Source: Nitrospirota bacterium
GTDB lineage: Bacteria > Nitrospirota > UBA9217
Direction: 5' to 3'
DNA length: 64,000 nt
Assembly (NCBI GenBank): GCA_963741205.1
Contig: CAVUHW010000013.1
Location: 111,104-175,103, forward strand
In this document: piece by piece, positions 16,965-63,027 of the stretch
Layout: each line of letters opens with the position of its first letter
How positions within the stretch are numbered: the first letter of the stretch is position 1
Notes under the pieces: model-generated
Told to the model about the DNA's origin: nothing
Database searches by the model: none
What the model saw: the letters and a program-made list of their open reading frames with translations, nothing else
Program-made: the position numbers and the translations under genes

Positions 16965-16982
16965 GGGACGCCTGAAATCAGC

Positions 16983-17588: not shown

Positions 17589-17682
17589 AGGAAATTACGG
17601 CCACACCTGCTTTACCGCTCCTCTCTCAAGTTCCCCGTCACATAAGCTTTTCTGCCAACCTGTCTTTTCAGGAACGCACAGC

Positions 17683-17877
17683 CTAATGCATCCGGCAGGT
17701 TATATCGACTATGCTGTGCGCTTCTTCCTTACTCATGCCGTCCGTCTGGTAATAGATATAGTCATCGACCATATCACAAAGCTCTTTGCGGGTAATGTCC
17801 GGAGCTATTGCGCGGACTTCACCTTGAAAAATCCTCGAAGCATCAGGAGCTGTTTCTTTTCTTTCTATCCTGTTCAT
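17683..17877 (-). CDS. Small hypothetical protein (64 aa)
   Basis: RBS GGGAGG before ATG, plausible composition. Confidence 0.5.
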   Translation of the reverse strand: MNRIERKETAPDASRIFQGEVRAIAPDITRKELCDMVDDYIYYQTDGMSKEEAHSIVDITCRMH

Positions 17878-18010
17878 CAGCCCTCCCTTCGACAGCAGAA
17901 CCCCACTGAAAAACCACCTCTTGTGCAGCATGTGGTGCGTTCCCTGAAGGAAAAAAATCTGTCCCTATTTTTATTATATCAGTATTTTCCGTGAGGAGAC
18001 ACGCGGTGGA

Positions 18011-18778: not shown

Positions 18779-19758
18779 CGCTGCGCCCTCCGGTGGCTCC
18801 GCACAAACTCGCGCGTCGCTTCCTTATCGTCCGGGAGAACTTCGTCCCTGATGGTCCTGCCGGTGAGTTTCAGGAACACGTCGTTCAGCGTGGGCTTCTT
18901 GAGGCTTACGGAGACGGTCCGGACCGGAAGCGAATGGATCATCTTCGGGATGAATTCATCGCCTTTTTCCGTTTCAAGGACCAACCCGCCGTTTTCCTCA
19001 CGTGCACTGATGTTAAAACTCTTTTGGAGCTCCTCGATCGCGCGTTTATTGTCGGCAGTCACGAGATGAATAACATCGCCCTGCACCATCTGTTTGAGAC
19101 GCGCGGGCGTGTCCAGCGCAATGATCCTGCCGTGGTCGATGATGGCGATGCGGTCGCAGTTCTCAGCCTCCTCCATGTAATGGGTCGTCATGAAGACGGT
19201 GATCTTCTCTTTTTTTCTGAGCGTATTGATGAAATCCCAGATCGTGTTCCGTGTCTGCGGGTCGAGGCCCAGGGTCGGCTCGTCCAGGAACAGCACGCGA
19301 GGATAATGGAGGAGCCCCCGGGCGATCTCGAGCCGCCGCTTCATGCCGCCGGAGAAGTTCTTGATCAGGTCGTGCTTGCGTCCCTGGAGCTCGACCACCC
19401 CGAGCATCTCGTCGATCCGTTTTTCCGTCAGCCTGCGGTCGAGGTTGTAGAGGTAGGCGTGAAACTTGAGGTTCTCATAGGCGGTCAGGCCGGAGTCCAG
19501 GGTCGTGTCCTGGAAGATGATGCCGATGGCCGCACGCACACGGTCGGGGTCCTTCGCGCAATCGAACCCGCCGATCGCCGCCGCTCCCGATGAGGGAGAG
19601 AGCAGCGTGCAGAGGATGCTGATGGTCGTGGTCTTGCCCGCGCCGTTAGGCCCGAGGAACCCGAAGACCTCGCCTTCCTCCACGTCGAACGAAATGCCGT
19701 CGACGGCCTTGAGCGCTTTGAACTGCTTGGAGAGATTTTGAACGGTGATGATGGACAT
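18775..19758 (-). CDS. ABC exporter ATP-binding protein (DrrA-like)
   Basis: GPNGAGKTT, FSGGMKRR, LFLDEPT, TTHY. Confidence 0.95.
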   Translation of the reverse strand: MSIITVQNLSKQFKALKAVDGISFDVEEGEVFGFLGPNGAGKTTTISILCTLLSPSSGAAAIGGFDCAKDPDRVRAAIGIIFQDTTLDSGLTAYENLKFHAYLYNLDRRLTEKRIDEMLGVVELQGRKHDLIKNFSGGMKRRLEIARGLLHYPRVLFLDEPTLGLDPQTRNTIWDFINTLRKKEKITVFMTTHYMEEAENCDRIAIIDHGRIIALDTPARLKQMVQGDVIHLVTADNKRAIEELQKSFNISAREENGGLVLETEKGDEFIPKMIHSLPVRTVSVSLKKPTLNDVFLKLTGRTIRDEVLPDDKEATREFVRSHRRAQR

Positions 19759-40909: not shown

Positions 40910-42467
40910 ATGCTCCTCATCTTCCCTCCTGTTGCAAAACCCTGCGAACCGCCGGCAGGCATCGCGAAGCTTGCCGGCGCGCTTAAAGCCCACGGAATAT
41001 CCTGCGAACTCCTTGACGCGAATATCGAAGGGCTGCTCCATCTTCTCGGACAAACGCAAACAGCCTCCGATACCTGGACCCGCAGGGCGGTCAAAAACAT
41101 TTCAGCGAACATCGCCGCGCTCAGAGATCCGAGGACCTATCAATCTCCCGACCGATACGACCGGGCGGTCCGGGACGTGAACCGCGTCCTCTCGGTTTCG
41201 GGCGGACACGGCGCGCTCGTCGGCCTGGCGGATTATCAGCACCGAAGTCTCTCGCCCCTGCAGAGCGCTGACCTGCTTTTTTCCGCAGCACATCCCGAAC
41301 AAAATCCCTTCTATCCGTACTTCAGCAAGCGGCTGCCGGAAATGCTCGATCGCGCGACAACCGGGATGGTCGGTCTTTCCCTGAACTTTCTGAGCCAGGC
41401 GCTCACAGCCTTCGCCATGATCGGGTTTATCAGGAAGGAATTCCCGGGAGTGAAGATCATCCTCGGCGGCGGACTGGTCGAGTTCATGGATGAAAAGGCC
41501 TGGCTTTCAGAATCCCTTCGGCGATCTCGTGGATCACTTGATCGCCGGCCCGGGAGAGGGGCCCCTGCTCGATTTGCTCGGCGTCAAAAAAGTCACGAGT
41601 CATCACTATACGCCGGATTACGCCTCACTCCCGGTCAACGATTATCTTTCACCCGGCTTCATCCTTCCCTACAGCGGGTCGAGCGGGTGCTACTGGAATA
41701 AATGCTCCTTCTGCCCCGAGACAGCAGAGGACAATCCCTATGTTTCGGTCCCCGTTCCGCAGGCAATGGCTGATCTAAGGGCACTGGCCGCGAATACGAA
41801 GCCGGTCATCATCCATCTCCTGGACAATTCGGTGAGTCCCGCGCTCATGCAGGCGCTCGCGGCCGACCCTGTCGGGGTCCCCTGGTACGGGTTCGCGAGG
41901 ATCGGCAAGGACCTGTGCGATCTCGATTACTGCATGGCCCTCAGGCGTTCTGGGTGCGTGATGCTCAAGCTCGGACTGGAATCTGGGGACCAGGGAGTTC
42001 TCGACCGGTTGAACAAGGGCATCGACCTCGAAACGGCGTCGAAGGTCTTAACGAATCTCTCGAAGGCGGGGATAGCCGCGTACGTCTATCTTCTCTTCGG
42101 CACGCCCGCTGAAACAGTGGTCGAAGCGCGGAAGACACTCGAATATGTGGCCGCTCACGCGGAGGCGATCACGTTCCTCAATCTGGCCATCTTCAATTTG
42201 CCCGTGTGCGGCGCTGAGGCCGCTCTCTATGAGACCGGTCAGTTCTATGAAGGAGACCTCTCGCTCTACAGCGGTTTCAAGCACCCGCGCGGATGGGACC
42301 GGAAGGAGGTGCGCAGATTTCTGGACGCCGAGTTCAAACGCCATCCTGCTGTAGCAGCCATCCTCAAGAACGACCCGCCGTTTTCACCTCCAATCACGCC
42401 GCTTTTTTCGCGCCCGCCTCGAGGCCGATGCCTTGAAATTTGTCTTTTTTCAGCTATAGTAAAATGA
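40910..42467 (+). CDS. B12-binding radical SAM protein (frameshifted)
   Basis: LLIFPP..PPAGIA.L, IILGGG, CYWNKCSFC, GLESG. Confidence 0.9.
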
Positions 42468-42529
42468 GTGGCATTACAAAGATCCCTCGTAACAAATCCA
42501 GCCGATGCTTCATGACAAGGAGGACAACA

Positions 42530-43598
42530 ATGAATAGCGCAAGAGGCATTACCTCACGGTTTTTTCTTAGGTTCCCGTTGATCTTCGCCGCATTGTGCAT
42601 CACTCTATTCGTCGCGAGGTCCCTGTTTGCCGCGAGCGCGGATGGAGATCTCATGGACAAGGCCAAGTCGGTCTTCGGGCCGCTCCCCGCCTCCATGCCG
42701 TCTCCGGACAATCCCATAACCCCCGCGAAGGTGAAACTGGGGAGGGTGCTTTTCTATGAATCGCGGATTTCCATCGACGGGACCGTGAGCTGCGCCAAAT
42801 GCCACCCCATGGGCCTGTACGCGGCGGACGGGCTCAAAAAGGCCGATCGGCAACAACTGCAAGGTCCTCCCGCGAAACTCGCCGACCCTCTTCAACGCGG
42901 CGGCCCAGATTTCGCAGCACTGGATCGGCAACCGGACGAGCGTCGAAGACCAGGCCAGGCAAGCGGTGACCGGGCCCCCGGCATTCGGCATGCCGTCCAA
43001 TGAATCCGTTGAGAATATCCTCAAGGGGATGAAGGGGTATGTTGCTCTGTTCAAGGAGGCCTTTCCCGGAGACAAGGACCCCGTAACCATGGAAAATTTC
43101 GCAAAGGCGGTCGGGGCGTTTGAGCGGACGCTCGTGACGCCGGCGCCCTTTGACGATTACGCCCGGGGCGATGCCGGCGCGCTGACGGCAGAGCAGAAGC
43201 GGGGATTTAAGACTTTTCTGGACACGGGGTGCATGATGTGTCATGCCGGTCCTTACTTCGGCGGCCAGATGTATCAGAAGTTCGGCATGCTGGAGCCGTA
43301 CGAGAAATACACGAAGAGCCAGCCGGTGGACGAGGGACGGTTCGCGGTCACGAAAGACCCGACCGACAAGTATGTGTTCAAAGTCCCGGTGCTCCGTAAC
43401 GTTGCCGAAACGCCGCCGTATTTTCACGACGGGTCCGTGGAAAAGCTTGAAGACGCGGTCGTAATCATGGCGAGGATCCAGCTCGGGAAGAACCTGACAA
43501 AAGAGCAGGCGGGTGACATTGTCGCTTTTCTTAAGTCATTGACCGGCAAGATTCCCGATGCGGCGCTGACCGTGCCTGTGCTGCCGTCGGAGGAATGA
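42530..43598 (+). CDS. Di-heme cytochrome c peroxidase (frameshifted)
   Basis: SCAKCH, CMMCH, RNSPT, FKVPVLRNV, PYFHDG. Confidence 0.93.
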
Positions 43599-45179: not shown

Positions 45180-45782
45180 ATGAATATCGAGCCCATCAAC
45201 GTGTTGCTGATAGAAGACAGCCCCGATGACGCCCTTCTTATCAGCAAGTCCCTGGCCGGCGCTATGAAGACGCCCTACGGGTTCAAACATGTCGGGAAAC
45301 TGACTGACGGCATGGAATGCCTGGCGGGAGGGGGCATCGATATCGTGCTTTTGGACCTTGGGCTGCCGGACGGCCGCGGCATCAGCACCTTTGCCGTGCT
45401 GCATAAACACTCGCCCGATGTCCCGGTAATCGTTCTGACCGGCCACGATGATGAAGAACTCGCCATCGAGGCCGTTCAAAAAGGCGCACAGGACTATCTC
45501 GTGAAGGGGAAGGTCGACGGTGGGCTCCTGCGGCGCTCCATCCGCTATGCGATCGAACGGCAGAAACTGCGCACCCAACTGAAGCAGTCGATGAAGGAGA
45601 TCAACACACTGCGGGGCTTCCTGCCCATCTGCGCGAATTGTAAAAAGATCCGTGACGACCACGGCTATTGGACCCAGATCGAAACGTATATCAGCATGCA
45701 CTCGGAAGCGGAATTCAGCCACGGCCTCTGTCCCGAATGTGTTGTCAAGCTCTACGGAAATGAAATCGGGAAAAAAGAATGA
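45180..45782 (+). CDS. Response regulator with a C-terminal Cys/His (Zn-finger-like) domain
   Basis: LLIEDS, LLDLGLPD, DYLVK; LPICANCKKIRD...SHGLCPEC. Confidence 0.9.
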   Translation: MNIEPINVLLIEDSPDDALLISKSLAGAMKTPYGFKHVGKLTDGMECLAGGGIDIVLLDLGLPDGRGISTFAVLHKHSPDVPVIVLTGHDDEELAIEAVQKGAQDYLVKGKVDGGLLRRSIRYAIERQKLRTQLKQSMKEINTLRGFLPICANCKKIRDDHGYWTQIETYISMHSEAEFSHGLCPECVVKLYGNEIGKKE

Positions 45783-45971
45783 CAAAGGCTGTCGGGCACC
45801 CGTCTCTCAAATCGACGCCTTTCGAGCGCCCTGCCTCTGGAACACCGTATCATCCAGCCTCCCTCATCGCCGTTCGCTGTCCACGGCGCATGCCCGAAGC
45901 GGAAGCGTCACGCCGGCGTCATGATATTTTCTGTTGTATTAGCAAGCCATTTGGAATAAATTACTTTGTCC

Positions 45972-47006
45972 ATGTCTGAATCCTCTGTCCCTTATAAAAT
46001 TCGTGGCCTGGTGTTGACGGCCCTCTTGATCGTGCTCTGGCTCGTCCTGGGCATGGTCTTCCTGGAACGGTTCATCCCGCCCTTTGACCGGCTCGAGCCG
46101 TGGCTCATGCCGTGGAAGGGCCTGATCCCTCAGGAGGCCACTCTCGACCGGCGTCTTTATCTCATGCAGAGCCAGCTCGATGCGTCCAGCAGGGTCGCCC
46201 ATTACGCGCTGGTCATCATGATCGCGTCCTTTGCCGCGCTCAGCATGTACTTGTCCGTCGTCTACCAGCAAAAGCAGAGGAGGGCGCGCGAGAACATGCT
46301 GCTCATGCTGAAAAATCAGGAAATAGCCCGGCGCAACGAATTTATCCGCTATATCTCGGCGACCATCGGGCATGAATTCAAGAACAACCTGGGGAGGATC
46401 AAACGGAGGATCGATCTGCTCCCCGATCTTCCGCCGGAGGCGCAGGAGCGCATCGACGACAACCTGGACAAGCTCTTTGCCGATATCGATATCTTCAAAA
46501 AGATCTCCGATAAACGCGAAGAGGGCCTCGTGGAGTTCAAGAATATCGACATCCAGGCCATGCTCGGCGATCTGACGCCTCATTACGGCGACCTCGCCGA
46601 TATCACGACCGTCGAAGGGGCGACCGTGCCCATGATCTATGCCGCCCCGCCGCTCTTAAAGACGGTCTTTGAAAATCTGATCGACAACTCCATCAAGTAT
46701 AAAAAACCGGACCAGGCCCGCGCGCGCGTGCGCGTCGCGTGCGAGATCGACCGGGACGGAACCAGGCGCTATGTGACGATTTCGTTCCGGGACGAGGGGA
46801 TCGGCATGGACGAACAGCAGGCGGACCAGTGTTTTTACAAGGGGAGGACCACCGGCGAGGGATGGGGCCAGGGGCTTTACTATGTCAAATACGTCATAGG
46901 CCTCCATGCCGGGAAAATCAGGATCGGGAAGGAATATACCGCCCCGGGGGTCGGCACGGAGATAATCATCAAACTCCCCTTCGTAGAGGAGGCGCCGGAT
47001 GTTTAG
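45972..47006 (+). CDS. Two-TM sensor histidine kinase
   Basis: IGHEFKNNL, ENLIDNSIKY, DEGIGM, GWGQGL. Confidence 0.9.
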   Translation: MSESSVPYKIRGLVLTALLIVLWLVLGMVFLERFIPPFDRLEPWLMPWKGLIPQEATLDRRLYLMQSQLDASSRVAHYALVIMIASFAALSMYLSVVYQQKQRRARENMLLMLKNQEIARRNEFIRYISATIGHEFKNNLGRIKRRIDLLPDLPPEAQERIDDNLDKLFADIDIFKKISDKREEGLVEFKNIDIQAMLGDLTPHYGDLADITTVEGATVPMIYAAPPLLKTVFENLIDNSIKYKKPDQARARVRVACEIDRDGTRRYVTISFRDEGIGMDEQQADQCFYKGRTTGEGWGQGLYYVKYVIGLHAGKIRIGKEYTAPGVGTEIIIKLPFVEEAPDV

Positions 47007-47891
47007 GGTGCTGATCGCCGACGACGACTTCGAGGACCGGGAGCTGCTGAAACTCGAAATACAGAAAGCGCTTCAGCGAAGAGGAGCCCGACCTCCGGTT
47101 TCAGGAGGCGCCCAGCGTCCGGCAAGCCCTCAAGGTCCTGACGGCGCAGATCGTCGACCTGCTGACGCTCGATATCGAGTTTGACCGGCTGAACGAAGGC
47201 ATCGACGCCCTGCCCGAGCTTTTCGAAACCTATCCGACGCTGAACATCATCGTCATCAGCGGCAAACTCGATAAAAGCGAGGTGTCGGAACGGCTCTTCC
47301 GCTTTACGAAGGACAACGTCCTGAAGGGCAAACGCTGGGCCCGGCATTTCGACGTCCTCGACAAGAAGGACGACAAAACCGAGGCCTTGCGCCGCGCCTA
47401 TGCCTTTGCCGTCAAGCAGCGGGAGGGCGCGGACAGCATCCGGGAACTGTTTCTCCTTGCCGAATCCTATCTCGAGAAGAACATGCTCGACAAGTGCCTG
47501 GAGGTCTATCAGAAAATACAGCGCCTGGCCCCCGGCGAAGTAGAGTCGGGGGAGAACATCCGCATCGTCAAGGGGGACGTATCCGCACAGCAGGCGCTGG
47601 ACTATTTCCGGGCAGGAGAGAAGGTCGTGGCCGCCCTACTGCTGGGCTATCATCTTGAAAACCGTCTGAGGGCGTTCACCGCAGCGGCGCTCGGCACGGA
47701 CGCTTCCGACGCTCATTGAAGGGTTGAAGGAGATGGACCAGGGCCGCCGCATCAGCCACTTCAAGAAGGAACTGTTCAGCGACCTGGTAGGCCTGCGAAA
47801 CAAGGCCATCCACCAGCCGACCAACGTCACTGAGGCGGATTTCCAGGCGGCGGTGAAAAAACTTGCCCTGCTGGAGGAAACAGCGCCATGA
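46999..47891 (+). CDS. Response regulator with REC + TPR-like + HEPN/DUF4145-like domain (frameshifts near 47075 and 47705)
   Basis: VLIADDD..LLTLDIEF..IIVISG..LDK; LAESYLEKNMLDKCLEVYQKIQRLAP; AALLLGYHLENRLR..LRNKAIH. Confidence 0.75.
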
Positions 47892-48535
47892 ACGTCAAGG
47901 CCCCATGGAAATACGTTCCGCCGCCGGGCCCGGTCCTCAGCCTCCTGCTGATCGGTTTGGTACTCTTGAGTTCTCTCCTCTATTACCGGTCGGTCAAGAT
48001 CCAGCGGTTTCTGGAGCCCGCCCTTGCCCTGTCCCAGCCCCGGAACGAGTTCACCAAGAACATCAAGCAAATCATCCAGAAAGAGTTCGGGGCGGGCAAG
48101 ATCGAGGGCCTCAATGTTAAGACGAGCTCGATTGTCATGGAAACGTCTCTGTTGTTTTCCCCCGACGGCCGCCTCAAGGCCTCGGCGCAGACCGATCTCC
48201 AGAAGCTTGCCCGTGTTTTTTTGGCGCTCATGAAGGATGACCACCTGAGGTCTGAGATCAGTCTCGTCCTGATCATCGGCCACTTTCCCGCATCCGGGGC
48301 AAGAGAGGCAAGCGTTGCGGAGAGGATGATGGTGGCGCGCATGGTCGCGTTCATACAGGACGCCCTGTTTAAGTTGGAGCCCGGTCTCGGAAAAGGATAC
48401 TCGACCTATTTTGCGGCCGCTGTCCGGCCGATGGATCCGCGCGAGGGAAACATAGGCGTCGTGGAGTTCCGCATCGTTCCGTCGGAATATCTGCACATCG
48501 AGGTGCTGGAGAAATTGGAGAAGTATTCCCGTTGA
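47888..48535 (+). CDS. Single-TM protein with a degenerate OmpA/MotB(ZorB)-like domain
   Basis: TM helix, SLLFSPDGRLK..LQKLARVF..EISLVLIIGH, terminal VEFRI; ATGA overlap with upstream gene. Confidence 0.6.
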   Translation: MNVKAPWKYVPPPGPVLSLLLIGLVLLSSLLYYRSVKIQRFLEPALALSQPRNEFTKNIKQIIQKEFGAGKIEGLNVKTSSIVMETSLLFSPDGRLKASAQTDLQKLARVFLALMKDDHLRSEISLVLIIGHFPASGAREASVAERMMVARMVAFIQDALFKLEPGLGKGYSTYFAAAVRPMDPREGNIGVVEFRIVPSEYLHIEVLEKLEKYSR

Positions 48536-48591
48536 GCGTCTCATACAGGTCAGCCGGCTTCACTGGAGAAGTAAGATAACCGCACCTAAGC

Positions 48592-48620
48592 TTGACAAGG
48601 GGGGGCGGATTTGTTAGAGT
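48592..48620 (+). promoter_or_regulatory. Sigma70-type promoter
   Basis: TTGACA-17 bp-TAGAGT. Confidence 0.55.
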
Positions 48621-48659
48621 TGCGAAACTATTCCAATGGGGAAAGGAGGTGAAATCAAA

Positions 48660-49010
48660 ATGAAGAAGATCCTTACGTTCATCATTGCTGTTGTGTTCGC
48701 CATGACGTTCGGCGTTGCTTTCGCGGAAGACAAGCCGGGCGGCGAGGTCCATAAGGCCGAGAAGACGGAGAAGACCGAGAAGGTCGAGAAGACTGAAAAG
48801 GCCGGTGAGACCCATACAAACGCCAAAGGCGAGAAGGCCGAAACGCACAAACACAAGCAAAAGGGCAAGAAGAAGAAGACCGAGGCAGAGACGGCTGGCC
48901 ATCCGGCTGCAACTCCGGCGACCCCGGCGACACCGGCGAAACCGGCAACCCCGGCAACTCCGGCAACCCCGGCGACTCCGGCAACTCCGGCAGCTCCGGC
49001 AGGGAAGTAG
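48660..49010 (+). CDS. Exported low-complexity protein with KxE and PAT repeats
   Basis: Strong RBS AAGGAGGTG, signal peptide ending AFA, (KTE)n and (PAT)n tracts. Confidence 0.85.
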   Translation: MKKILTFIIAVVFAMTFGVAFAEDKPGGEVHKAEKTEKTEKVEKTEKAGETHTNAKGEKAETHKHKQKGKKKKTEAETAGHPAATPATPATPAKPATPATPATPATPATPAAPAGK

Positions 49011-49176: not shown

Positions 49177-50589
49177 TTATTCTTCCTCGATTTCGATCTT
49201 GTTCGCGGCAAGGACGCCGCCGCTGAACGAACCCCGCGCCTTGACGATGGTCCTGTCCAGCACGATCGAGCCGAAGAGGTCGCCAGGCGAGGCTGCATGG
49301 TCTTCGATCTCCATTTGGCCTCCCTGCACGCCGGAGATCGTCACGGTGATCCCCGCGATAACGAGCTTCTCCGCGCCGGACGTTGAGTCAAAGGAGCTTA
49401 CCGGTCCCTGGAGGAGGATCTTGTCCGCATCGATAGGATGCTCTTGTCTCTTCACCCGGGTTGCCGTGATCGTGGACTTGTCCTGGCTCAGAAATCCGCG
49501 GATCTTCAGGCCGTCACCGGCCGCGATTCCCGCTATGTCACCGGACAGGTCGATCAGCCTGGTAGCGGAGGTAAGGGCCACGTTCAGGCCCAGGACGTCA
49601 GCTGAACCCGCTTTGTCGGCGTTCGCCTCGATCCGGATGGTGTCTTTGAACCTGATTTTATCGGCCAGCAGGACGCCGCCGGTTACATGGCCTTCCGCTT
49701 CAACCATCACGTTATTGCCGAGGTCCGTTGCGTCCCCGCCCCGGAACACGACGCTTCCCGCCAGATGCACCGGCTGGTCGCCGACCTTAAAGTCGCCGGC
49801 CGCGTCGGTAAATCCGCTGATGAACCCCTCGACCTCAAACTCCTGGCCTTCGGCTGGAATGAACGCCGCATCCTCAGCGCGCTCGACCACGATTCTGACG
49901 GCCGCTGTACCGTTCAGATGAACTTCGACGATGTCGCCGTTGCCGAACGTGGCGCCTGGAGGCTCGATCATGGTGTCGGCGGAGAACGTGATGGTCAGGC
50001 CGCCGATGTCAAAGGAAGTCGCCGTCATATTGCTCACGATGCCCCTCACTTCATCGGGCGCCAATTCCTTGGGGCCGAGCAGTTCGACGCGGGTGGCCAT
50101 GATGTTGCCGGCCTCATCCCGTATACCATGGACTTCGACCCGGTCGCCCGTCTTGAGGGCTGCCAGGTCCGCCACGTCAGCAAATGCGGTCATGCCGTTC
50201 ACCAGGATGGTCTGTCCGAGGACTGAAAACGAATCGGCGCCTACTGCCGTGATCTCGCCCCTCACCTCGGCGATGACCTTGATCATGTCTGCAACGCCGC
50301 TTAGCCCGTCGTCGTTGATCCGGCCCCTCAGTTTTACAATCATCCCGTTATCGAGAAAGCCGGGGTCTTTGGCTGTGTTATCGGCCGTGATGCTGGCTCC
50401 ACTGGTATCGAATGCGACGCCGTTCACTGTTACGCCGCTGTCCTTGAGTACTGCACCCATCATCGTAACAGGCGTTGCCGGCGTAGTGGCGGACGAGGAC
50501 ATCCCGCTGCCGCCGCAACTCGTAAGAACAAGGGCTGCGACTGCCAGTACGAGCAGTCCGCTCACCCTGAATGTGCTTTTGGTTTTCAT
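49177..50589 (-). CDS. DUF5666 repeat lipoprotein
   Basis: Lipobox LTSC; repeated VRGxI..F.V.G..V..T.F..GDxVEVxG..AxRI units. Confidence 0.85.
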   Translation of the reverse strand: MKTKSTFRVSGLLVLAVAALVLTSCGGSGMSSSATTPATPVTMMGAVLKDSGVTVNGVAFDTSGASITADNTAKDPGFLDNGMIVKLRGRINDDGLSGVADMIKVIAEVRGEITAVGADSFSVLGQTILVNGMTAFADVADLAALKTGDRVEVHGIRDEAGNIMATRVELLGPKELAPDEVRGIVSNMTATSFDIGGLTITFSADTMIEPPGATFGNGDIVEVHLNGTAAVRIVVERAEDAAFIPAEGQEFEVEGFISGFTDAAGDFKVGDQPVHLAGSVVFRGGDATDLGNNVMVEAEGHVTGGVLLADKIRFKDTIRIEANADKAGSADVLGLNVALTSATRLIDLSGDIAGIAAGDGLKIRGFLSQDKSTITATRVKRQEHPIDADKILLQGPVSSFDSTSGAEKLVIAGITVTISGVQGGQMEIEDHAASPGDLFGSIVLDRTIVKARGSFSGGVLAANKIEIEEE

Positions 50590-50818
50590 CTCGCTCACTT
50601 CCTTCCTCATCAAATTATTCCTTCTTGCTGTTTGACCATAAGACGGTTACACAGACCGGAAGGTTACAATCGAGGAAATTGCGAATACGACAAAAGGCGT
50701 ATTTTGCCCGGGCAAGATTGAAACAAAATTGACACTACAGAATTCCTATAAAAATCTCCTTTCTTGGCACCCGCCCGCTTTAGGTGCACACCGGAATATC
50801 GCGAAGAAAGAAAGGGCT

Positions 50819-50890: not shown

Positions 50891-52587
50891 TTAGTTCCGC
50901 TTCATCGGGAAATAGAGGCTGAATGTCGTACCGACCCCCACTCCGCTGTTGACACGAATGAACCCGCCATGATCCTCGATGACCTTTTTGGTGATGGAGA
51001 GACCCAAACCGGTCCCTTTCATCAACAATTTCGTAGTGAAAAAAGGTTCGAAAATCCTGTCGATGTTTTCCTCTGGTATCCCCTGGCCGTTGTCTTTTAT
51101 TTTCAGCGCTATGTAAGCCTGGTCTCCCACCTGCTCCTTTTCCGTACTGACGGTAAGGACCCCGCCCCGGGGCATCGCGTCGATCGCGTTGGACATCAGA
51201 TTTTCCAGGGCCTGAAGCACCTGTTCCTTGTTCGCAAGTACAGGAGGCGTCACTCCCGGGCGTCTCTCGATTTCGATCGATTTGTCCCTGCAGATGTCTT
51301 CATACATTGTGAGCGCGCTTTCTATCATATCGGAAAGGTTCAGTTCTTCGCGCTGGTGGGCGTCGCGCCGTGAGAACAGGAGGACATTCTGAAGGACGTT
51401 TTCCAACCTGATGGCCTCCGAGAAGATCAAGCTTGCATACTTCTTTTCTTTCGTCCCCTCAGGCAATTTATCCATGAGCCTGTTGGCGAACCCTCCGATC
51501 GCGGTAAGCGGGTTTTTATCGTATGCGATACATTTGCCGTGATCCGTCCGAGGGCCGCGAGTTTTTCGGTTTCGACGAGCTGCTCCCTGAGCCGTTCCTT
51601 TTCCGATTCCGCCTGGCGGCGCTCGATGAGACCGGCAAGTGAATTCGCTATCGCAGAGAGGAACTCCTCTTCTTCCGGAATGCGCTGGTGCTCGTCAGTC
51701 ACCGCCACATTGATCAATCCCAACGCGCGATTGGCGAACACGATAGGGGCGCAATACTGCCCTGCAGTCCCCCGAGACGGAATATTGGATTTCGTGGTGT
51801 TCGTCCAGGCAGTCGGAAGACATGATCTGGCACGCGGACGGGGGAAGAAGCGACGGACCTGTCCGCGCCTACGGGGACGGCGGCGCAGGTCGCGACCTGG
51901 GACACGGAGAAACCGTGCATTGCCCTGAGGACGAGCCTTTCCGGTTCGTGCTCGACAAGATAAATGCTGCCCCGCGTGCGCAGCGCAAAGCTCGGCAGGG
52001 TGACGATCAGGTCGAGGACGCGGCTGAGCTGTTCGTCGAGCGAAATGGGTTCCAGCGATATTTTCAGGACAGAACTGATGGCCTTTTGTATCTGGTAATT
52101 AAGCTCGATCTTGTGCTCGACGTGTTTGCGCTCCGTGATGTCCCTGATCGCCGCTATTGCCACGATCGCGCCTTCGGTCGTCAAGTAGCTTAGACTGATG
52201 TCGATCGGAAACTCCGTGCCGTCCTTTTTCAAACCGAACAAATCAAGCCCCGTCCCCATGGGACGCACGCGGGGGTTGGCCATGAACCCCGACGACATTT
52301 CTGCGATGGCGGGCGCGAAACCGCTCCGGCATCAGAATTTCGAGGTTTTTCCCCAGCAAGTCCTCTCTTGCGTACCCGAATAGCTCCACCAGTTGGGTGT
52401 TGATTTCCACGATCTTTCCCGCTCTGCCGGCTATAACCATCGCATCGGGAAGTGCATCAAGGAGCTTGCCGTACTGCCTTATCGAAAGTTGCAGCACATG
52501 TCCCGTGTTTGCCGGTGCTCCCTTCTCTTCATTCAGTTCTTCGGTCTTTGTCGTCACACAGCCCGGTAATGTGCATTGTTCTCTCAT
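50891..52587 (-). CDS. PAS-GAF sensor histidine kinase (several frameshifts)
   Basis: [59 protein letters not shown]. Confidence 0.88.
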
Positions 52588-52951
52588 ACGATTCTCCTTC
52601 CCGGGGTAATTATCATTCTAGTCATAATTTACCACCTTTTTTGTCCTGTTTCATCATGGCTTCTTCGCCGGCAGAGGCACGCCGTATGCATGTCCGCGAA
52701 ATGCGGGGAAGCCGGCCGGACAAAGGCGAAAAATAACCGGGAAAGGGCAGGAGGAGAAGGATCGGAAGAGCCAAAAGAATTAAGCAGGAGTGAAAAGACG
52801 GGATAAGGGAGGAGGAGATCTGAAAGGCCTGTCGCGAGGCGTTGATGACTCGGCAGTTGTCTGCGCCTCTCTTGCGCTAAAAAAACGGAGCCGGGAATAC
52901 ACCCGGCTCCGGTCATAGTTATCCGACTGTTATTATCAACAGCCCGAAGCG

Positions 52952-54367: not shown

Positions 54368-55917
54368 TTACATCGGCATGTCCATGATGTCCCATACACC
54401 CATCATGCCGATGTCTTCATGTTCGATGATATGACAGTGGAACATGGTCATGCCCGGATAATCCATGACCGGGACGAGCATCCGGACGCTGCCCCCCTTC
54501 GGGACGATGACCACGTCCTTCCATGCCGGCGTCTTCGTCAGGAACGCGGCGTACGACGCGTCGCCTCCGGTGATCGAGAGCACCTGACAGGCGTTCACGT
54601 GCTGGTGGAAGGGGTGGTCCATGTTGCTCTGGTTTACGATCTCCCAAATCTCATACGTCCCAAGTTGCGAGTGAATGGAAAAATAATTTTCCATGGTGAA
54701 GGAAATGCCGTTGATGTAGCCCTTGCCCTGTCCCATGGACAAGACGATCCGCTCCGTCTTGGCGGGTGTTGCCGAGATTCGCCCGGCCGCCGGGTTGACG
54801 ATCGCGGGAATGGCGTCGTTCATCTTCGTGCCCTTGTACGCAAGGGTCATGAGCGTTACTTGCTGGCTGCTCATGTTGCCCTGACGGCTGTAGGGAAGCG
54901 ACGAGCAGCCGGTAGTTCTTCGATGTCTGGTTTGCCTTTACGAGGATGTCGAGCCGCTCGCCCGGCGAGAGAGCAGGATCGAAGTGACGGCATAGGGCTT
55001 GTCAATGAAGTCCGCCTTCGGTACCCGACAATGTACATCGTATGGCCTTCAAGGCTCAGTTTCAGGAACCGGGCGTTGCAGGCGTTCACGACCCTCCAGC
55101 GCTGGACCTGTCCAGGTTTTATGCTCAGCACCGGGTTCACCTGTCCGTTCACCATCACGGTATTGCCTTCCTTGCCGTGCATGTAATCCATTTGCGAGGT
55201 GTAGGGCTCGGGTGCTGACCCGCTCAGGGTGATGTCCTTGATGACCATAAGGTGCGTCTCGAAGGAGGACAGCGTGCTGATGTCGTCCTCCACGACGAGC
55301 GCGCCTGCCATGCCGCCCCAATACTGCTCGGCCACAGTGCCGTGGCTGTGGGGATGGTAGAAGTTGAGAGTGCCGGGATACATCTTGGACAGGTCGTACT
55401 CATAATCAAAGGTGTCTCCGGACATTAGCATGAGCATGGCGTTGTCCGATTTTCCCGAAGGCGATACGTGCAACCCGTGTGTGTGCAGGTTCGTCATCTG
55501 GCGTTCGTGTCCCAGGATGTTCTTTCCCATCATGTCAAGCGAGTTCTTGAAATGGACCTTCAGGATATCTCCCTTCTTCACGCGGATAGTGGGTGCGGGG
55601 TAGGCGCCGTTATAGGTGAGGAGATTCGCCAGCGTACCATTGACGTTCACCCACGACGGTTTCGCCTCCAAGTCCACCTCGACGATGCCGGGAATAGTGC
55701 TGAAGTTGTGCATCTCCACAGGGTCGGCGAATGCGTGCCCGGCGGTGGATCGATGACGCTTGTCCCGCCGCCCATGCCTCCGCCTCCCCCACACCATCCC
55801 GCCACTACCTCCGCCCATCATCTGGGCGAGGGATGGGGCGGCAGCAAGTCCGATTGTTGCGCCTGCCAGGCCGAGGGAGGCGGTTTTCAGAAACTCTCTC
55901 CGGGTAAGCTTTTTCAT
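54368..55917 (-). CDS. Tat-exported multicopper oxidase (frameshifted)
   Basis: TRREFLK, NLHTHG, YHPHSH, HPFHQH, HCHIIEHEDIGMM. Confidence 0.95.
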
Positions 55918-56007
55918 GGTTGTGTCTCCTCATGGAAATATCCGGAAAAAGAAAGGGGGCTGCGGCCCCTCGATCGTCTGCGATTTTACATGATGTTGGC
56001 GTTGCCG

Positions 56008-56368
56008 CTATGGCTTGCACCCGCCGCCGACGCAGTAGGGCCGCATCATCTCGTTGTCTTCATGCGAGAGGATGTGGCAGTGCCATACGAAAAGGCCGGG
56101 GATGTCGAAGTGCGCCTTGACTCTGGTCACCTTGCTCGGGTACACGAGGACCGTGTCCTTGGTCCGGTTTCCCCTGCCTCGGGGCCAGTGATTGTGGTCT
56201 GGCCCCAAGCGTCGCAGTCCCGGTGGTCTCATCAATAATGATGTCCTGCCGGTTGATCACCTCGAACTGCACCTGGTGGATGTGGATCGGATGGGCATCT
56301 TCCGTGAAGTCGTAGATCTCCCATATCTCTGTGCTGTTGTTATCGACGTTCTCCGTAATAGGCTCCAT
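56008..56368 (-). CDS. C-terminal fragment of a second multicopper oxidase (CotA/bilirubin oxidase-like), cut at the junction
   Basis: HPIHIHQVQF, KDTV, VWHCHILSHEDNEMMRP. Confidence 0.9.
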
Positions 56369-56369
56369 T

Positions 56370-57752
56370 ACGGCTGTTCATCGGCGAGGAAGGCTACGAG
56401 CGGCAGGACAGCTCGACCGCGATCGTGGAGGGGCGGCTCTGGGACGTGGACGGCCAGTCGCGCTACGGCGACTCGCACCTCCGCAGCCTGTTCGGCGACG
56501 CGGCGCAGAGCCTGGCGCGCTCGGATGCCGTGGTGCACGCGGTCGACGTGACCGGCTTTGGCGAAGACGAGATGATCTCGCGCGCGACGCCCAAGACCGA
56601 CCCCGGCTCCGGGGCCACCATGAGCGTGCGAGAGTCGGTGTCCGGCCGCGAGTCGCTCAACTTCATCTCCGCGGAGACCGGCGGCCGCTTCTACAAGGAC
56701 GCGAACGACCTCAAGCCCGTGCTCGACGAGATGCTGGAGATGACCAGCCGCGACTACGTGCTCGGTTTCCAGCCCAGGGACGAGAAGGGGCCGGGCACGT
56801 TTCACAAGGTCAAGGTCCGGCTCGCGCGCAAGGGCGTCAAGCTGTCGCACCGCCCCGGCTACTTCGAGCGCGAGACAGGCCCCGGCGTGCCCATGCTCCA
56901 GCGCAAGTTCGACGCGGCGCAGCTCGTCGTCACGGGCCTGGGCCAGAACGACCTCGCCTTCGACGCCCTGTGCCTGCCGTTCCCGCGTCCCGGGGGGCGC
57001 CAGGCGCTGAGCGTCGTGCTGCAGGTCCCGAAGGCCTCGCTGGCCTGGCAGGCCGGGAAGGAGCTGGCGGTCGAGGTCTACGGCTACGTCGTGGACGAGA
57101 AGGACTCCGTGGTGGACCACCTGGCCCAGCTCGCTCGATCGATCCCGCCAGGGTGGATCCCGAGGCCAGCCGTGAGGGGCTGTCGTTCCAGGGCACGTTC
57201 AACGTGCCCCCCGGTCGCTACACGATCCGGCTGCTGCTGCACGACCGCAATAGCGGGGCCCCGGCGTGAAGTTCCTGGACGTGACGTGCCGCCCTACGAC
57301 GCGAACATCGCGTTCGTCCTGCCGCCGGTCGTGGCCGACGACCCGGACCGCTGGATCGCCCTCGACATGGGAGCGGGCAAGGCCGAGGCGAGCCGGCAGC
57401 CCCTTCCGTTCGAGATCGACGGCAAGCCGTTCCTGCCCCGGGCCAGCTTCGCGTACGGCCCGGCGAGCCGGAGCGGCTCGTGCTGATGTCGTTCGAGCCG
57501 CGCATCCTCGGCGATCCGGCCGCCGACGTGGAGATCCGCTCGTCGCTCACGGGCAAGGACGGCCGTGTCGAGCCGCCCGGGCGGCTGCGCGTCGAGCGCG
57601 TGCAGAGGGACGCCCTGGGCCGGCGGACCTACGTCTTCTCGTACACGCCCGATTCGCTCGAGGCGGGCGACTACACGCTGCGGATCGGCCTGGGCGAGAG
57701 CGGCGCGCTCGCCCAGTCCTACGCGCTGCTCCGCGTGCGCACCGGCTCCTGA
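56370..57752 (+). CDS. C-terminal part of a VWA-domain protein of the acidobacterial type (frameshifted, 5'-truncated)
   Basis: VVHAVDV.G, SLNFISAETGGRF, YVLGFQP, FHKVKVRL..HRPGY. Confidence 0.8.
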
Positions 57753-57790
57753 GCCAGGCTGTCATCCTGAGCCAACCTCTATAATGAAGT

Positions 57791-58215
57791 GTGTCTGTGT
57801 CTGTCGCCGACCTCGAGGCTCGCCTGCATCGTTCCTCGAGGCTGACCCGCGGGGCGCCATCGCGGTCTATCTCTTCGGCAGCGTCGCACGCGGTGAAGCA
57901 CGGGCCGGAAGCGACATCGACCTGGGCGTCCTGTTGGGCCGCCGCCGGCGAAGCTCGACGCGCCGCAGTTCGCACTGGAGGCGGGACTGGAGCGGCTGCT
58001 GCGCGTGCCCGTCAGGTGGTCGTCCTAACCGCGCTCGGCCGACCTCGTGCACAGGGTCCTGCGTGACGGGCGCCTGCTGCTCGACCGTGACCGCGCCGCC
58101 CGCATCCGTTTCGAGGTGCAGTCGCGCAACGAGTACTTCGACATGGCGCCGATCCGGGCGCGCTACCGTCGCTACCCGGCACCCACCCGGCCCGGGATCG
58201 ACCGCGTGGCGGAGC
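57791..58215 (+). CDS. Minimal nucleotidyltransferase antitoxin (MntA-like), frameshifted; end approximate
   Basis: VYLFGSVARGEARAGSDIDLGV (GSx10DxD), VLRDGRLL, FEV..RNEYFD. Confidence 0.85.
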
Positions 58216-58222
58216 CTCGCGG

Positions 58223-58623
58223 GTGACCGACTCCAGCTCGTCGCCAAGAAGCTGGCGTTCGTCGAAACCTGTGTTCAGCAGCTTCGCACCCTGGCCCGTC
58301 CGGAGCTGCTGGGGAGGATGTCCGCGAGCAGCGCTTCGTCGAGCACACGCTCCAGCTCGCGATTCAGGCGGCGGTCGACGTGGCCTCGCACCTCGTGTCC
58401 GACGAGCGCCTGGGGGAACCCGAAACGACCGCGAGGTGTTCCGGCTGCTGGAACGAGCCGGCATCGTTGCAGCGGATCTCGGCGGGCGTCTGGAACAGAT
58501 GGCGGGCTTCGGAACGTGGTTGTTCACCTCTATCAGGAAGTGGACCTCGGGATCGTCAGGACGCGGGAGAACCGCCTTGACGATCTCCTCGAGTTCGTGG
58601 CCGACATCCGCCGGCGCCTTTGA
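58223..58623 (+). CDS. HepT/DUF86 HEPN toxin, frameshifted
   Basis: EHTLQLAIQAAVDVASH, RNVVVHLY (Rx4HxY). Confidence 0.85.
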
Positions 58624-58728
58624 GTTGCTGGTCGCCACGAGCCATTCGATCGACATCCAGAGCAATGGGCCTGCGGCCGGTCTTGGGGGGGAATGGCGGT
58701 GTCGGTGGGGAGTAGGGGCTGGCGGCGC

Positions 58729-59125
58729 TCAGCCGTAGCTGACGAGCTTGAGCCGCGGAACGCGCGACAGGTGCCGCGAGTTACGGCTCACGACCGGGAT
58801 CGCGTACGCGATGCCCGCCGCGGCGATCCAGAGATCGTTGGCGCCGATCAGCAGGCCATTCGCCTGGAGGCAGCGGAAGGCGTTTCCGTACTCCCAGCAC
58901 ACGTCGCGGCTCAAGGCCAGCACGTGAAAGGGAGCCACGAACGTCTCCCAGCGTCCGCGCTCGGCCATGGAGGCGCCCGCCGCCAGCTCGCCGGCGATCG
59001 TGGGAGCGATGTACAGCCTGTCACCAGCGTGGCGCATGAGCACGTCGTGCGCCGCACCCTTGGCTGCCGCGTCTCGCGTCGCGCTCCAGGTCGATCAGGA
59101 ACGTGGTCTCGAGGATCAGCGCTCC
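58729..59125 (-). CDS. vapC: VapC PIN-domain toxin (start approximate)
   Basis: ILETTFLID, GEL, IGANDLWIAA, VSRN.RH. Confidence 0.85.
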
Positions 59126-59364
59126 TTCCACTTGTCCTCGGGCGGGCGATCGGCCGCGACGGCAGCCTCGACGGCCTCGAGCTGCTTGTCGGTGAACGAG
59201 GCGCCGTGCGTCTCATAGCGTCGCAAGAGCTCGGCGCCGGACAGGGTGTCCTCGGGCCATCGTGCGCGCAGGATGACCTCACTGAAGGACTCGCCGGGAA
59301 GCGCCGGGGCCGCCCTGAGGCGCTCATACGCCTCGACTTTCAGGGACACAGTCTTGACAGCCAT
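59116..59364 (-). CDS. VapB-type antitoxin
   Basis: MAVKTVSLKVEAYERL..GESFSEVILR; directly upstream of the PIN gene. Confidence 0.82.
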   Translation of the reverse strand: MAVKTVSLKVEAYERLRAAPALPGESFSEVILRARWPEDTLSGAELLRRYETHGASFTDKQLEAVEAAVAADRPPEDKWKER

Positions 59365-59464
59365 GTGCGGAGTGTACATCGCACAGAATACTTGTCAAGT
59401 AATTGCTGGCGATGAACTTATGTCGGCATGCGATTGTTTGGGCCGCGTGCCAGTGCGGCCGCCG

Positions 59465-59692
59465 CTACTCCTCCGGCTCGAAGCAGGCGCGGTCGGGCTG
59501 GCAGACCTCGGGCTGCAGCAACGTCGTCCGGGCCCAGGACCGTCGTCGGTGCGCGCGCACCAGTACTGCGCGGAGGGAGACGCCTCGCTCAGGTCCACGT
59601 GGTCACGGCCGACCACGTAGTACATCTTGGTCCGCAGGCGTCGGCAGACCGGGCGTCGTCGCTGTCGGCGTGTCGGGGTCCGTCGTTGCCAT
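59465..59692 (-). CDS. Small Cys-rich hypothetical protein (frameshifted)
   Basis: Reconstructed CRRLRTKMYY..QYWCART..LGPDD..C..C..RACFEPEE; RBS-like GGAG before ATG. Confidence 0.6.
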
Positions 59693-59701
59693 GGCAGCTC
59701 C

Positions 59702-60677
59702 TTACGCGAGAGAGGAGCGTCCGGCGCACGAGCGTCTGCACGAGGCCGACCTTGTAGCCGTTGTCCGAAGCGGCGGCCGCGCCCACCGATGGCGGCCTCG
59801 CCGCCGCCTCGGCGGTCGCCGCGTCAGGGCTTGCCGACGAGGGCCTGCTCGGCCCGCGTCGACCGCCACGGGATCGGGGCCACCGCGCCCAGCACGATGC
59901 GCGCGTCCCTCACGACGCCGCCGTCGGCTTGAGCGCCGCGGCCACGGCGACGAGCGGCCAGTCGAAGGCCTGCGCGTTCGCGCACCTCGTCGTAGGCCGA
60001 CCTCCCCGCCGCGGCCGCGGGCACGCGGATCTCGGTCAGCGAGCTCGCCCGGCTCGAGCACGTTCTCGCGCTCGGGTTCTTCGTCGGGCAGGCACGAAGA
60101 ACTCGGCCGCGGGCACGGTGCGCTCGCCCTTGGCGCCCGTCGAGGACGAAGGAGGCGCCGAAGGCCACGAGGCCACCGCCGCGTTCGACGGGTGAGCCGC
60201 GTACGAGGGGCCGCCGCCGAAGATCACGTGGTAGCGGTTCTCGCCCGCCCACCGCGAAGCAGACCTCGCCGCCCTTCTTCAGGCACTTGTAGGACTCGAG
60301 CCGGTAGTACCAGCAGCGCGGACGCTGCAGGACGTTGCCGCCGATGCGTGGCGACGTTGCGGATCTGGGGCGAGGCGGCCTCGCCGCAGGCGGGGGCGAG
60401 CGCGCGGGTGGGTCTGCCGGACGCCCGGCGTGCGCGGCGACTTCGCGAGCGTCGCGAGCGGCGCCGATCCGCAGCGCGCCGTCCGCCTCGACCGCGATGC
60501 TCGTCGAGGCCCGGCACGGACTTGAGGTCGACGACGCGCGGCGGCTCGACGAGGTGCTCCTTGAGGTGGTCGAGGAGGTCGATGCCGCCGGCCTTGAGCA
60601 CGCTGCCCGGCTTCTCGGCCAGGAGCTCGCGGGCCTGCGGCGAGGGTCGTGGGCCGGGCCAGCTCGAAGCGATTCAT
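59702..60677 (-). CDS. FAD-binding subunit of a xanthine dehydrogenase-family enzyme (YagS/PaoB-like)
   Basis: KAGGIDLLD, AASPQIRNVAT, RCWYYR..CLKKGG, GAVAPIPWR, NGYKV. Confidence 0.88.
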
Positions 60678-60678
60678 G

Positions 60679-63027
60679 TCAGGCCCTCCTCGTGCCTCGG
60701 CGAGCGCGGCCAGCACGCGGTCGGGGGTGATGGGGCAGAGTCGCGGACGCGCGCGCCGGTGGCGTTGAAGACGGCGTTGGCGACCGCGGCGAGGGTCGGG
60801 ACGATCGGCGGCTCGCCGATGCCGGCGGCCGACGTGTTGTTGCCGACGTTGGCCACGCGGGGTGAGGATCGACACCGCCTCGAACATGTCGTCGGGCGCA
60901 AGGACCTTGTACGACTCGAGGTTGGGGTTCACCATCGTGCCGACGTTGCGGTCGAGGATGCGGTTCTCGAAGAGCGCCCACGAGACGCCCTGGATCATCG
61001 CGCCGATGACCTGGCTCTCGGTGGTGAGCGGGTTCACGGGAAGCCCGCAGTCGTTGACGGAGACCATCTTGATCGACCCGCACGTCGCCCGTCTCGACGT
61101 CGACCTCGACCTCGGCGAACTGCGTGCCCGCGATGTCGCGGCGGTAGGTCTCGTACTGCTTCTTGCGCTCCGCGACGGCCGAGATCGATCTCGCCGGGCA
61201 TCTTCGCCGCGGCCTGCTTGAAGGCGAGGCCTTGCGCGGGCTGCGCGGCGACGAAGATCTTGCCGTCGCGCGGCGTCCAGCTCGTCCGGCTTGCGCCCGA
61301 GCAGCGGCGCCGCGAGCGCGAAGAGCTTCGCCCGGGCCTCGTGCGCCGCGAGCCGGACGACGGGCGCCACCGAGTTGGTCGTGTTGCTGCCGCCCGAGCC
61401 GGGGCCCTCGGGCCAGCGGGTGTCGCCGACGTGCATCGTGATGTCGCGCGGGCTGCAGGCCGAGCTCCTCGGCGGCGACGATCGCCATGGCGGTGCGGAA
61501 GCCGGTGCCGATGTCCTGGGCGCCGGAGAAGACCTCGACGCAGCCGTCGCGATGGATGCGCACCTCCGCGCCCGACGCCTGCGCCGCGCGCGATCACGTA
61601 CCAGTTGCCGTTCGCCATGCCGATCCCGCGCTTGCGCGCGTGGCCGTGGCCGCCGCGCCCGGCTCGTCGCCGCCCGCCTTCTTGTTGCGCCGCTCCCAGC
61701 CGATGGCCTTGGCGCCGATGTCGTACTGGCATGCGCGCACCGGGCTCGCCTCGTTCTTGCGGCGCAGCTCGAGCGGGTCCATGCCCGAGCTTCTCGGCCA
61801 GCTCGTCGACCGCCGACTCGAGGGCGAAGGCGCCCTGCGGATGGCCGGGCGCGCGGAGCGGCGCCGCCGGGCCCGGCGTTGGTGAAGACGTCGTGCTCCT
61901 CGATCTTGAGGTTCGGGTGTTGCGCGTAGAGCGTCGCCCGCCGGCCCGCCGGTGCCGGCGCCGCCGGCGATCCCGGCCGAGCCGAAGGAGCGATGGTGGA
62001 TCGCGGTGAACGTGCCGTCCTTCTTCGCGCCGATGCTTGCACGGTCATGAGCGCGCTCGGCGCGTTGCCGGTGCAGAGGTGCTCCTCTGCCGGTCGAGCA
62101 TGAGCTTGACCGGGGCGCCCGGCCTTCTTCGCGAGCCGGCAGGCGACGATCGCGAAGGCGCTGCCGAGTGGCCGAGGGCGCCGAGCTTGCTGCCGAAGCC
62201 GCCGCCCATGTGCTCGGTGAGCACGCGGACGTTCTTGCGGTCGATGCCGAGCGCCTCGGCGACGCCCGTCGCGCACCGTGAAGACGCCCTGGGTGGAGGC
62301 GTAGATCGTGAGCTGGTCGCCCTCCCACGTCGGCGACGACGCCGTGCGTCTCGAGGCGGCGCGTGGGTGTGGACCGGGACGTGGTACGTGGCCTCGATGC
62401 ACGACGTCGGCCTCGGCGAAGCCCTTGTCGACGTCGCCGCGGTTGGCCGCGGCGCGGGCGCGGGCCGACGACGTTGCCCGTTGCGCGGCCCTGTCGCGGC
62501 CGCCGGGCAGCCGCTCGGGGTCGAAGACGCGGCGGCGCGCCGGCCTTCATGGCCTCTTGAGGTCGGTGACTGAAGGGCTTCTCGTCGTAGGTCGACCTCG
62601 ACGAGGCGCGCCGCGTCCTCGGCGACTCGGGCGTGACGGCCGCGACCGCCGCGATGTCCTGGCCCGCGAAGCGCACCGTCGCGCGAGTCGGTGGTCCACA
62701 CGGCCTTCACCCCGGGAGCGCCTCGGCCTTCGAGGTGTCGATCTCGACGATCTCGCGCGCGGGAACGAGGCGCCGACCATCCGGCCCCAGAGCATGCCCG
62801 GGAGCTTGACGTCGTACGTGTACTTCGCGCGGCCCGGTGACCTTGAGCGGGCCTCGAGGCGCGGGCGCGGCCTTGCCGACGCGCTCGAAGCTTCGACTGT
62901 CGAGGTCCCAGGGCTTGAGATCGCCGTCGGCGGCGTGCACCTCGAGCGGCTTGCGGCGAGCCGGCAGTGGCCGGCCTTCACCGTGGACGGTCGGCGGTCG
63001 GCTCGCGGCTTCGGCTTCCTGCGGCAT
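60679..63027 (-). CDS. Molybdopterin-binding subunit (YagR/PaoC-like), heavily frameshifted
   Basis: KVTGRAKYTYD, STQG, MGGGFGSK, DIGTG, GSGGS, GIGEP. Confidence 0.9.

Follow-up and report, generated by a model that had tools for sequence, protein, structure and literature searches.

A three-gene operon on the forward strand of a Nitrospirota genome (45966-48535) encodes a histidine kinase, a response regulator and a membrane protein, which we call M3. The coordinates refer to the 64,000-nucleotide stretch that was analysed, hereafter the window (contig CAVUHW010000013.1, positions 111,104 to 175,103). Judged from sequence comparison and structure models, we consider it somewhat more probable than its contrary (about 0.55) that this is a chromosomal, self-contained two-component operon with an HEPN output, in which the signal passed from the kinase to the receiver domain (REC) of the regulator would be answered by RNA cleavage. 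Established here are the order of the genes, their domain architecture, the assignment of the output domain to HEPN, the conservation of its catalytic-type motif and the confinement of the frame breaks in the regulator gene to this assembly.

The three genes are translationally coupled. The sensor histidine kinase (45966..47006, 346 amino acids) is recognised by its HATPase_c domain (E 1.3e-16) and its hydropathy, and its stop codon TAG at 47004-47006 overlaps the ATG of the regulator gene at 46999. The regulator gene (46999..47891) ends with a TGA (47889-47891) which shares the letters ATGA at 47888-47891 with the start of M3. M3 (47888..48535) is by its open reading frame and hydropathy a single-pass membrane protein of 215 amino acids and belongs to an unannotated family. 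A scan of 45600-48800 for promoters and terminators found none within the operon beyond shuffled expectation. An earlier reading of the window from its letters alone, referred to below as the original prediction, had described a trio with overlapping stops and starts, and the open reading frames bear out its coordinates and overlaps. It had also supposed that indels hide the architecture from the automatic list of open reading frames. Indeed, the regulator gene is spread over three frames in the window, and the arrangement of a kinase, a REC-TPR-like-HEPN regulator and a membrane protein was recovered from intact homologues, in which the regulator has 296 amino acids.

The N-terminal part of the regulator (residues 1 to about 125; 46999..47374) is a receiver domain. 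The Pfam family Response_reg scores 38.2 bits in protein P0001, against a cut-off of 30.2, and solved REC structures match residues 1-145 of the model with Z 8-10. D8, D10, D58, S87 and K122 do not vary among 29 sequences and D9 hardly varies; in the model, strands b1, b3, b4 and b5 (4-8, 54-58, 82-86 and 117-120) end at these key residues. The phospho-acceptor predicted by position is Asp58 in the motif LTLD, with its codon at 47171-47173. Helix 4 and strand 5 are separated by an unusual insertion, TKDNVLKGKRWARH, which is invariant in the same 29 sequences. The cognate kinase with its HATPase_c domain stands directly upstream, with the overlapping stop and start described above. The receiver is followed by a helical linker (residues about 126-205; 47375..47614) with a TPR-like hairpin at residues 149-179 (47444-47536). 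Pfam TPR_2 reaches 19.6-21.6 bits on this single hairpin (E 1e-3), below the cut-off of 27, and in a search of representative proteins with the C-terminal 177 amino acids, TPR-repeat proteins match the linker stretch only (E 1e-8 to 1e-4). Thus the receiver that had been predicted from its DDD, LTLD, ISG and K residues is complete; of the one TPR-like hairpin, the helical hairpin itself stands and the Pfam assignment falls short. Nor does any DNA-binding family of Pfam or NCBIfam match the regulator, as had been anticipated.

What, then, is the output of a response regulator of this kind? On sequence and model evidence, the last 90 or so residues (about 206-296; 47615..47891) belong to the HEPN superfamily. 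The codons of R-N-K-A-I-H lie at 47796-47813, giving Arg266-Asn267-x3-His271 at the end of the model helix 253-271, and the motif RNxxxH is present in 120/120 of the regulator's homologues (the best 120 of 663). All 22/22 aligned sequences keep the R, N and H, fragments of only 40-55% identity among them, and Glu220 in helix 1 is invariant in the 29 full-length sequences. Pfam gives weak matches to three families of the HEPN clan, namely DUF4145 (E 0.022), HEPN_Swt1 (0.025) and HepT-like (0.085). For DUF4145 (PF13643) the scores are 15.3 bits in P0001 and 22.9 in the family member of genome G054, and the gathering cut-off of 23.1 is not reached. Sequence thus places the domain as a relative of DUF4145 which is yet no member by Pfam's rule. 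An independent alignment of DUF4145 was made of 25 genomic matches from other Nitrospirota, none of them from the regulator's family. The alignment of the C-terminal domain matched it in hhalign with a probability of 96.1% (E 3e-9, 88 columns), in a register that puts RNKAIH on the GN.A.H of DUF4145 and Glu220 on its conserved helix-1 Glu. The reversed template gave 0.6%, and all 22 of 22 column-shuffled runs gave 0.4% or less.

The structure models point the same way. Modelled alone, the C-terminal domain reached a pLDDT of 96.4 and a pTM of 0.87. Foldseek against the PDB ranked 2hsb first (TM-score 0.61), and most of its top rows are HEPN or HepT/MntA by title. A wide search with VIA, which is independent of Foldseek, also ranked the HEPN structure 2hsb first (Z 9.0, root-mean-square deviation 2.8 over 97 residues), and further HEPN rows are HepT 5yep and LsoA (Z 8.1 each) and RnlA (Z 6.5). 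The model of the whole regulator has a pLDDT of 71.9, and its closest structure is Csm6 (5fsh_B, E 2.5e-4); its residues 211-296 superpose on the HEPN part of Csm6' with Z 8.0 and a root-mean-square deviation of 2.6 over 83 residues. A complex prediction for two copies of the HEPN domain (score 0.09, mark 0.42) gives no evidence either way on a dimer. The HEPN assignment is made because the motif, the three Pfam families, the hhalign match with its controls, the confident model and the structural neighbours agree. Both parts of the original prediction about this domain, an intact R-x4-H at 47796-47813 and a C-terminus that is HEPN-like by profile, have held, with the fold in support but not decisive. 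The domain has so far gone unannotated, since PF00072 is the sole precomputed Pfam domain in the best 120 homologues, and the source names, where given, are 'response regulator' or 'CheY-like chemotaxis protein', with Nitrospirota as organism.

The kinase and M3 are the membrane components of the operon. The kinase has an H-box GHEFKN followed by HATPase_c, of which Pfam recognises HATPase_c only, and in NCBIfam many sensor kinases match its DHp and catalytic part. By hydropathy, two transmembrane helices (about residues 14-33 and 80-100) enclose an outer loop of about 44 amino acids, and no PAS, HAMP or GAF domain was detected. With this layout the kinase might detect its signal within the membrane or at its surface, perhaps via a partner. 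M3 has its transmembrane helix at about residues 13-31 (47924-47980), an invariant juxtamembrane stretch KIQRFLEP.LAL.QPRN and an alpha/beta C-terminal part. Its family comprises 556 database proteins, of which the best 120 are all unnamed or hypothetical and none has a Pfam domain.

Is M3 a relative of MotB, ZorB or OmpA, as the original prediction had it? The likeness lies in a short N-terminus, one transmembrane helix, a juxtamembrane stretch and an alpha/beta C-terminal part, and the single positive link is a PADLOC ZorB match (E 3.1e-6, residues 18-138). As leads only, the language-model neighbours of M3 include an OmpA cluster (0.89) and MotB clusters (0.85-0.86). Neither OmpA (PF00691) nor MotB_plug of Pfam matches M3, whether M3 is searched by itself or whole genomes are scanned. 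In comparisons with local alignments of MotB and OmpA, hhalign gave probabilities of 0.7-4.4%, which are not significant; the OmpA value is 2.8%, and the best MotB alignment (4.4%, 56 columns) is in register on the expected strand-helix-strand region. A protonatable Asp in the transmembrane helix is the defining residue of MotB and ZorB stators. Unlike these, M3 lacks an acidic residue there, with D or E in the transmembrane window of 0/120 homologues, and it lacks a MotA or ZorA neighbour: no MotA/ZorA/ExbB-type partner is among the Pfam matches of 55 neighbouring open reading frames at 6 loci and 59 open reading frames of the window. A search of solved structures with the M3 profile returned one chance match, a designed protein (E 0.038). 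Hence of the proposed likeness the ZorB match stands, uncorroborated by Pfam, hhalign, the transmembrane Asp or a partner gene; the link to MotB, ZorB and OmpA is remote at best, and M3 as a stator subunit is ruled out by the missing Asp, the missing MotA/ZorA partner and the lack of a significant profile match.

How might the operon work? The kinase, with its short outer loop, would detect a cue associated with the membrane or envelope, possibly via the single-pass M3, and would then phosphorylate Asp58 of the regulator. The phosphorylated receiver might dimerise or re-orient the linker, whereupon two HEPN domains would assemble or expose the R-N-x3-H site. The activated HEPN domain would cut RNA, with selective post-transcriptional control or growth arrest as the possible result. 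Phosphotransfer and RNase activity, the switching-on of the latter by phosphorylation, the kind of signal and the part played by M3 are all inferred in this scheme. That the operon is the first two-component system with an RNase output, with M3 as a co-sensor or as a membrane tether of the nuclease, is put forward only tentatively and at somewhat less than even odds.

Several observations weigh against an RNase-output operon of this kind. Every Pfam match of the C-terminal domain to the HEPN clan lies below its curated cut-off, and the Foldseek E-values of the domain are all above 0.1. In the wide VIA search, unrelated helical bundles reached Z 7-8.7, close to the HEPN rows, so the fold by itself is not decisive. 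In the search of representatives no protein beyond the regulator's family proved to be related to the C-terminal domain, and the domain therefore has no characterised close relative. The topology of M3 is ambiguous, with 2.2 K+R on the N-terminal flank of the helix and 3.0 on the C-terminal flank. Because this positive-inside count is ambiguous, the C-terminal part of M3 is possibly cytoplasmic, and M3 might then hold the regulator at the membrane as a tether or a restraint. Finally, not every HEPN domain is catalytic, some being binding modules. The last point leads to an alternative, in which the HEPN-like domain is a catalytically inert module that binds protein, RNA or nucleotide, and phosphorylation brings about sequestration or partner switching via the TPR-like and HEPN surfaces. 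The domain is minimal with its 90 or so residues, it scores under the Pfam cut-offs, and it is preceded by a TPR-like hairpin, which is a typical protein-binding element; a paper on HEPN proteins also lists non-nuclease members such as MtlR. Against this stand the R, N and H that are invariant in the best 120 homologues and in the divergent fragments, and the equally invariant helix-1 Glu220. Conservation as strict as this is what an active site would be expected to show, and we regard an inert module as unlikely.

A further question of concern is whether the regulator gene is intact at all. In the window its frames run from 46999 to about 47076, then at 47051-47719 (+1), and then from about 47700 to 47891 (the next +1). 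The first break, from frame 1 to frame 2, falls at 47074..47077 and the second, from frame 2 to frame 0, at 47696..47699, and in DNA alignments with four relatives each of them is one additional base. Contigs of public soil metagenomes, which are 95-99% alike, were found without one base at 47076 (run X2, 97% alike) and at 47698 (run X1). With the middle piece of 222 amino acids as query, 663 database proteins were found at E<=1e-3; among the best 120 of these, 112 are 296 amino acids long, the top one is 96% identical, and the intact homologues run through the three window frames in order. Thus the two indels that had been proposed are confirmed as single-base insertions, and in the intact homologues the HEPN-like frame is joined to the REC frame in one chain of 296 amino acids. 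Programmed frameshifting is ruled out, as the intact homologues and the near-identical contigs read straight through. A search of sequencing runs for the locus found a best run that matched 0.17 of the sampled words, and no RNA run with the locus.

The regulator could still be a true pseudogene in this genome, with two real frameshifts, so that the system would be dead here and alive in relatives. In favour of this, both insertions lie outside long homopolymers. Against a pseudogene, all three frames are stop-free apart from the insertions and are 96% identical to an intact homologue, and the 95-99% alike contigs lack both extra bases. Moreover, by Pfam at least four other genes of the window are broken over adjacent frames. 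They are a chorismate synthase (13282-13875 and 13875-14363), a CCP_MauG di-haem cytochrome c peroxidase (42440-43000 and 42966-43595), a multicopper oxidase (54371-56368, reverse strand) and a PAS histidine kinase (50894-52916, reverse strand). Since a housekeeping gene, the chorismate synthase, is broken likewise in the same 64 kb, an assembly error is indicated for the regulator as well. The source genome is a metagenome-assembled genome, 84% complete in 50 contigs. From these comparisons the two frame breaks are most likely assembly errors, and a pseudogene is improbable. The assembly of the window seems in general to be rich in single-base indels, and readings of it that are based on open reading frames need care. 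Separately, the 218-amino-acid database protein P0125 is a frame-shifted read-through that starts in the HEPN part of a homologous regulator and runs on into the gene for M3; therefore similar assembly errors exist in other public assemblies.

With the profile of the HEPN domain, strong matches to the regulator's family were found in 48/401 sampled Nitrospirota genomes. By taxonomic family the counts are 33/63 (f1), 4/5 (f13), 3/4 (f25), 3/9 (f27), 2/14 (f24), 1/7 (f4) and 1/35 (f11). The occurrence is patchy, with 7/14 genomes of the genus, and some nearly complete congeners, such as G001 (99% complete), are without the family. Two further weak profile matches are unrelated to it; the weak match in genome G028 (E 4.2e-5), which lies in the coiled-coil part of a 574-amino-acid OmpA lipoprotein, is spurious. 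The regulator and M3 are adjacent in 30/30 loci. The kinase is upstream in 28/30, where the other two stop at the contig end, and the gene order and the overlapping stops and starts are likewise kept in 28/30, which answers the question of the original prediction whether the trio occurs together elsewhere. Over 21 loci the kinase has a mean pairwise identity of 74%, the regulator one of 76% and M3 one of 58%; within the regulator the values are 84% for REC, 75% for the linker and 67% for HEPN. The flanks of the trio vary, and include multihaem cytochromes, SurA/PPIase chaperones, TPR/PMT_2 proteins, spermine-synthase-MFS fusions and glycosyltransferases. As an observation apart, three genomes have a second copy of the regulator family (G009:C327, G056:C147 and G246:C126), and the G009 copy shares 71% identity with the query.

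Could the trio be an anti-phage, abortive-infection or toxin-like module, in which phage adsorption, phage injection or some other insult to the envelope is sensed by the kinase and M3, whereupon the cell is arrested by the HEPN RNase? The patchy occurrence just described, with 33/63 genomes in one family, half of the genus and a 99%-complete congener without the trio, would suit such a module, as would the variable flanking genes and the ZorB match of M3. According to the same paper on HEPN proteins, many HEPN families, DUF4145/Abi-like ones included, belong to defence systems. On the other side, proximity to defence islands, which the original prediction had named as a check, was not borne out: PADLOC on 75 neighbouring proteins of 7 loci gave generic UvrA-like, DinG-like, GlgB-like and methyltransferase matches only. 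The flanking genes code for cytochromes, chaperones, glycosyltransferases and TPR proteins, the GC content is uniform across the window, no tRNA gene was found in its 64 kb, there is no antitoxin-like partner, and a mean identity of 76% in the regulator is high for a defence effector. We regard a defence module as distinctly improbable.

A two-component operon with an HEPN output may be compared with several known systems. In Csm6 and Csx1, effectors of type III CRISPR systems, a Rossmann-like sensor at the N-terminus is likewise connected through a helical linker to a HEPN domain at the C-terminus, with the signal received at the N-terminus and the output at the HEPN end. They differ in that their sensor is a CARF domain binding cyclic oligoadenylate, whereas that of the regulator is a phospho-accepting REC with its own kinase. 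No CARF domain was found in the regulator, whose N-terminus is REC by Pfam and structure. Moreover, the trio has no CRISPR context, the regulator is much smaller (296 amino acids), and the TM-scores over the whole chain are 0.2-0.3. Judged by the model, Csm6 is the closest architectural analogue, and no more than that. Closest in logic are Ire1 and RNase L, where a signal from the membrane or from a ligand turns on an HEPN-type RNase by way of phosphorylation and oligomerisation. These are eukaryotic and have a Ser/Thr-kinase-like domain fused to the RNase, whereas the trio would have a His-Asp phosphorelay over two proteins. The paper on HEPN proteins places the KEN domains of Ire1 and RNase L within the HEPN families. 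The best relatives in sequence are the DUF4145 (PF13643)/Abi-like proteins, which share the helix-1 Glu and (R/G)N-x3-H; those compared have open frames of 171-399 amino acids, and the domain of the regulator differs from them in scoring under the gathering cut-off and in being fused to REC. Among response regulators, the ANTAR proteins AmiR, NasR and EutV also have an output directed at RNA instead of DNA. ANTAR prevents termination by binding to RNA; it is no nuclease and has another fold than HEPN.

Several other features of the window and of related loci should be noticed. Immediately upstream of the trio, at 45180-45782 on the forward strand, lies another response regulator of 200 amino acids, with REC and a Cys-rich tail (C-x2-C ... 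C-x2-C) that has no Pfam family; it is not kept beside the trio in other genomes. Just after the trio, at 48636-49010 (forward strand), a small protein is encoded that looks secreted, carries KTEK and PATPAT repeats and has no Pfam family. It is preceded by a sigma-70-like site at 48592-48620 and is apparently a separate transcription unit. It is followed at 49177-50613 on the reverse strand by a lipoprotein-like protein of 478 amino acids with three DUF5666 domains. At 57565-62009 (forward strand) a protein with a Polbeta/NTP_transf_2 nucleotidyltransferase motif precedes open reading frames of 240 and 868 amino acids without a Pfam family, and this region has weak PADLOC PDC-S09 matches. In another genome (G019, locus L041), CpXC, DUF188, DUF2726 and Hypoth_Ymh proteins lie some 5-8 kb beyond the downstream end of the trio, at 15671-18927. 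Hypoth_Ymh is an HEPN-clan family too, and the group, present in this one genome only, may be a small defence-like cluster.

What would such an operon add to what is known? The known outputs of response regulators act on DNA, second messengers or protein partners or, in ANTAR, bind RNA. We regard the operon as a two-component system with a new output class and not as categorically new. The term 'REC-HEPN' was not found in the literature searched, supplements not covered, and the consulted passages of papers that mention HEPN together with receiver domains or response regulators, again without supplements, describe no such fusion with a cognate kinase. The paper on HEPN proteins cited above proposes, in its section 15, that surface signals become RNA degradation via membrane-linked HEPN proteins; in the part of it consulted there is no REC-HEPN regulator with a kinase, and 'receiver' appears once in another context. 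If our reading is true, direct RNA cleavage would join the outputs of two-component signalling, and the operon would offer a compact genetic model for the control of an HEPN RNase by a covalent signal. It would be a prokaryotic counterpart of the logic of Ire1 and RNase L, and it would link signals at the envelope of Nitrospirota directly to the decay of RNA.

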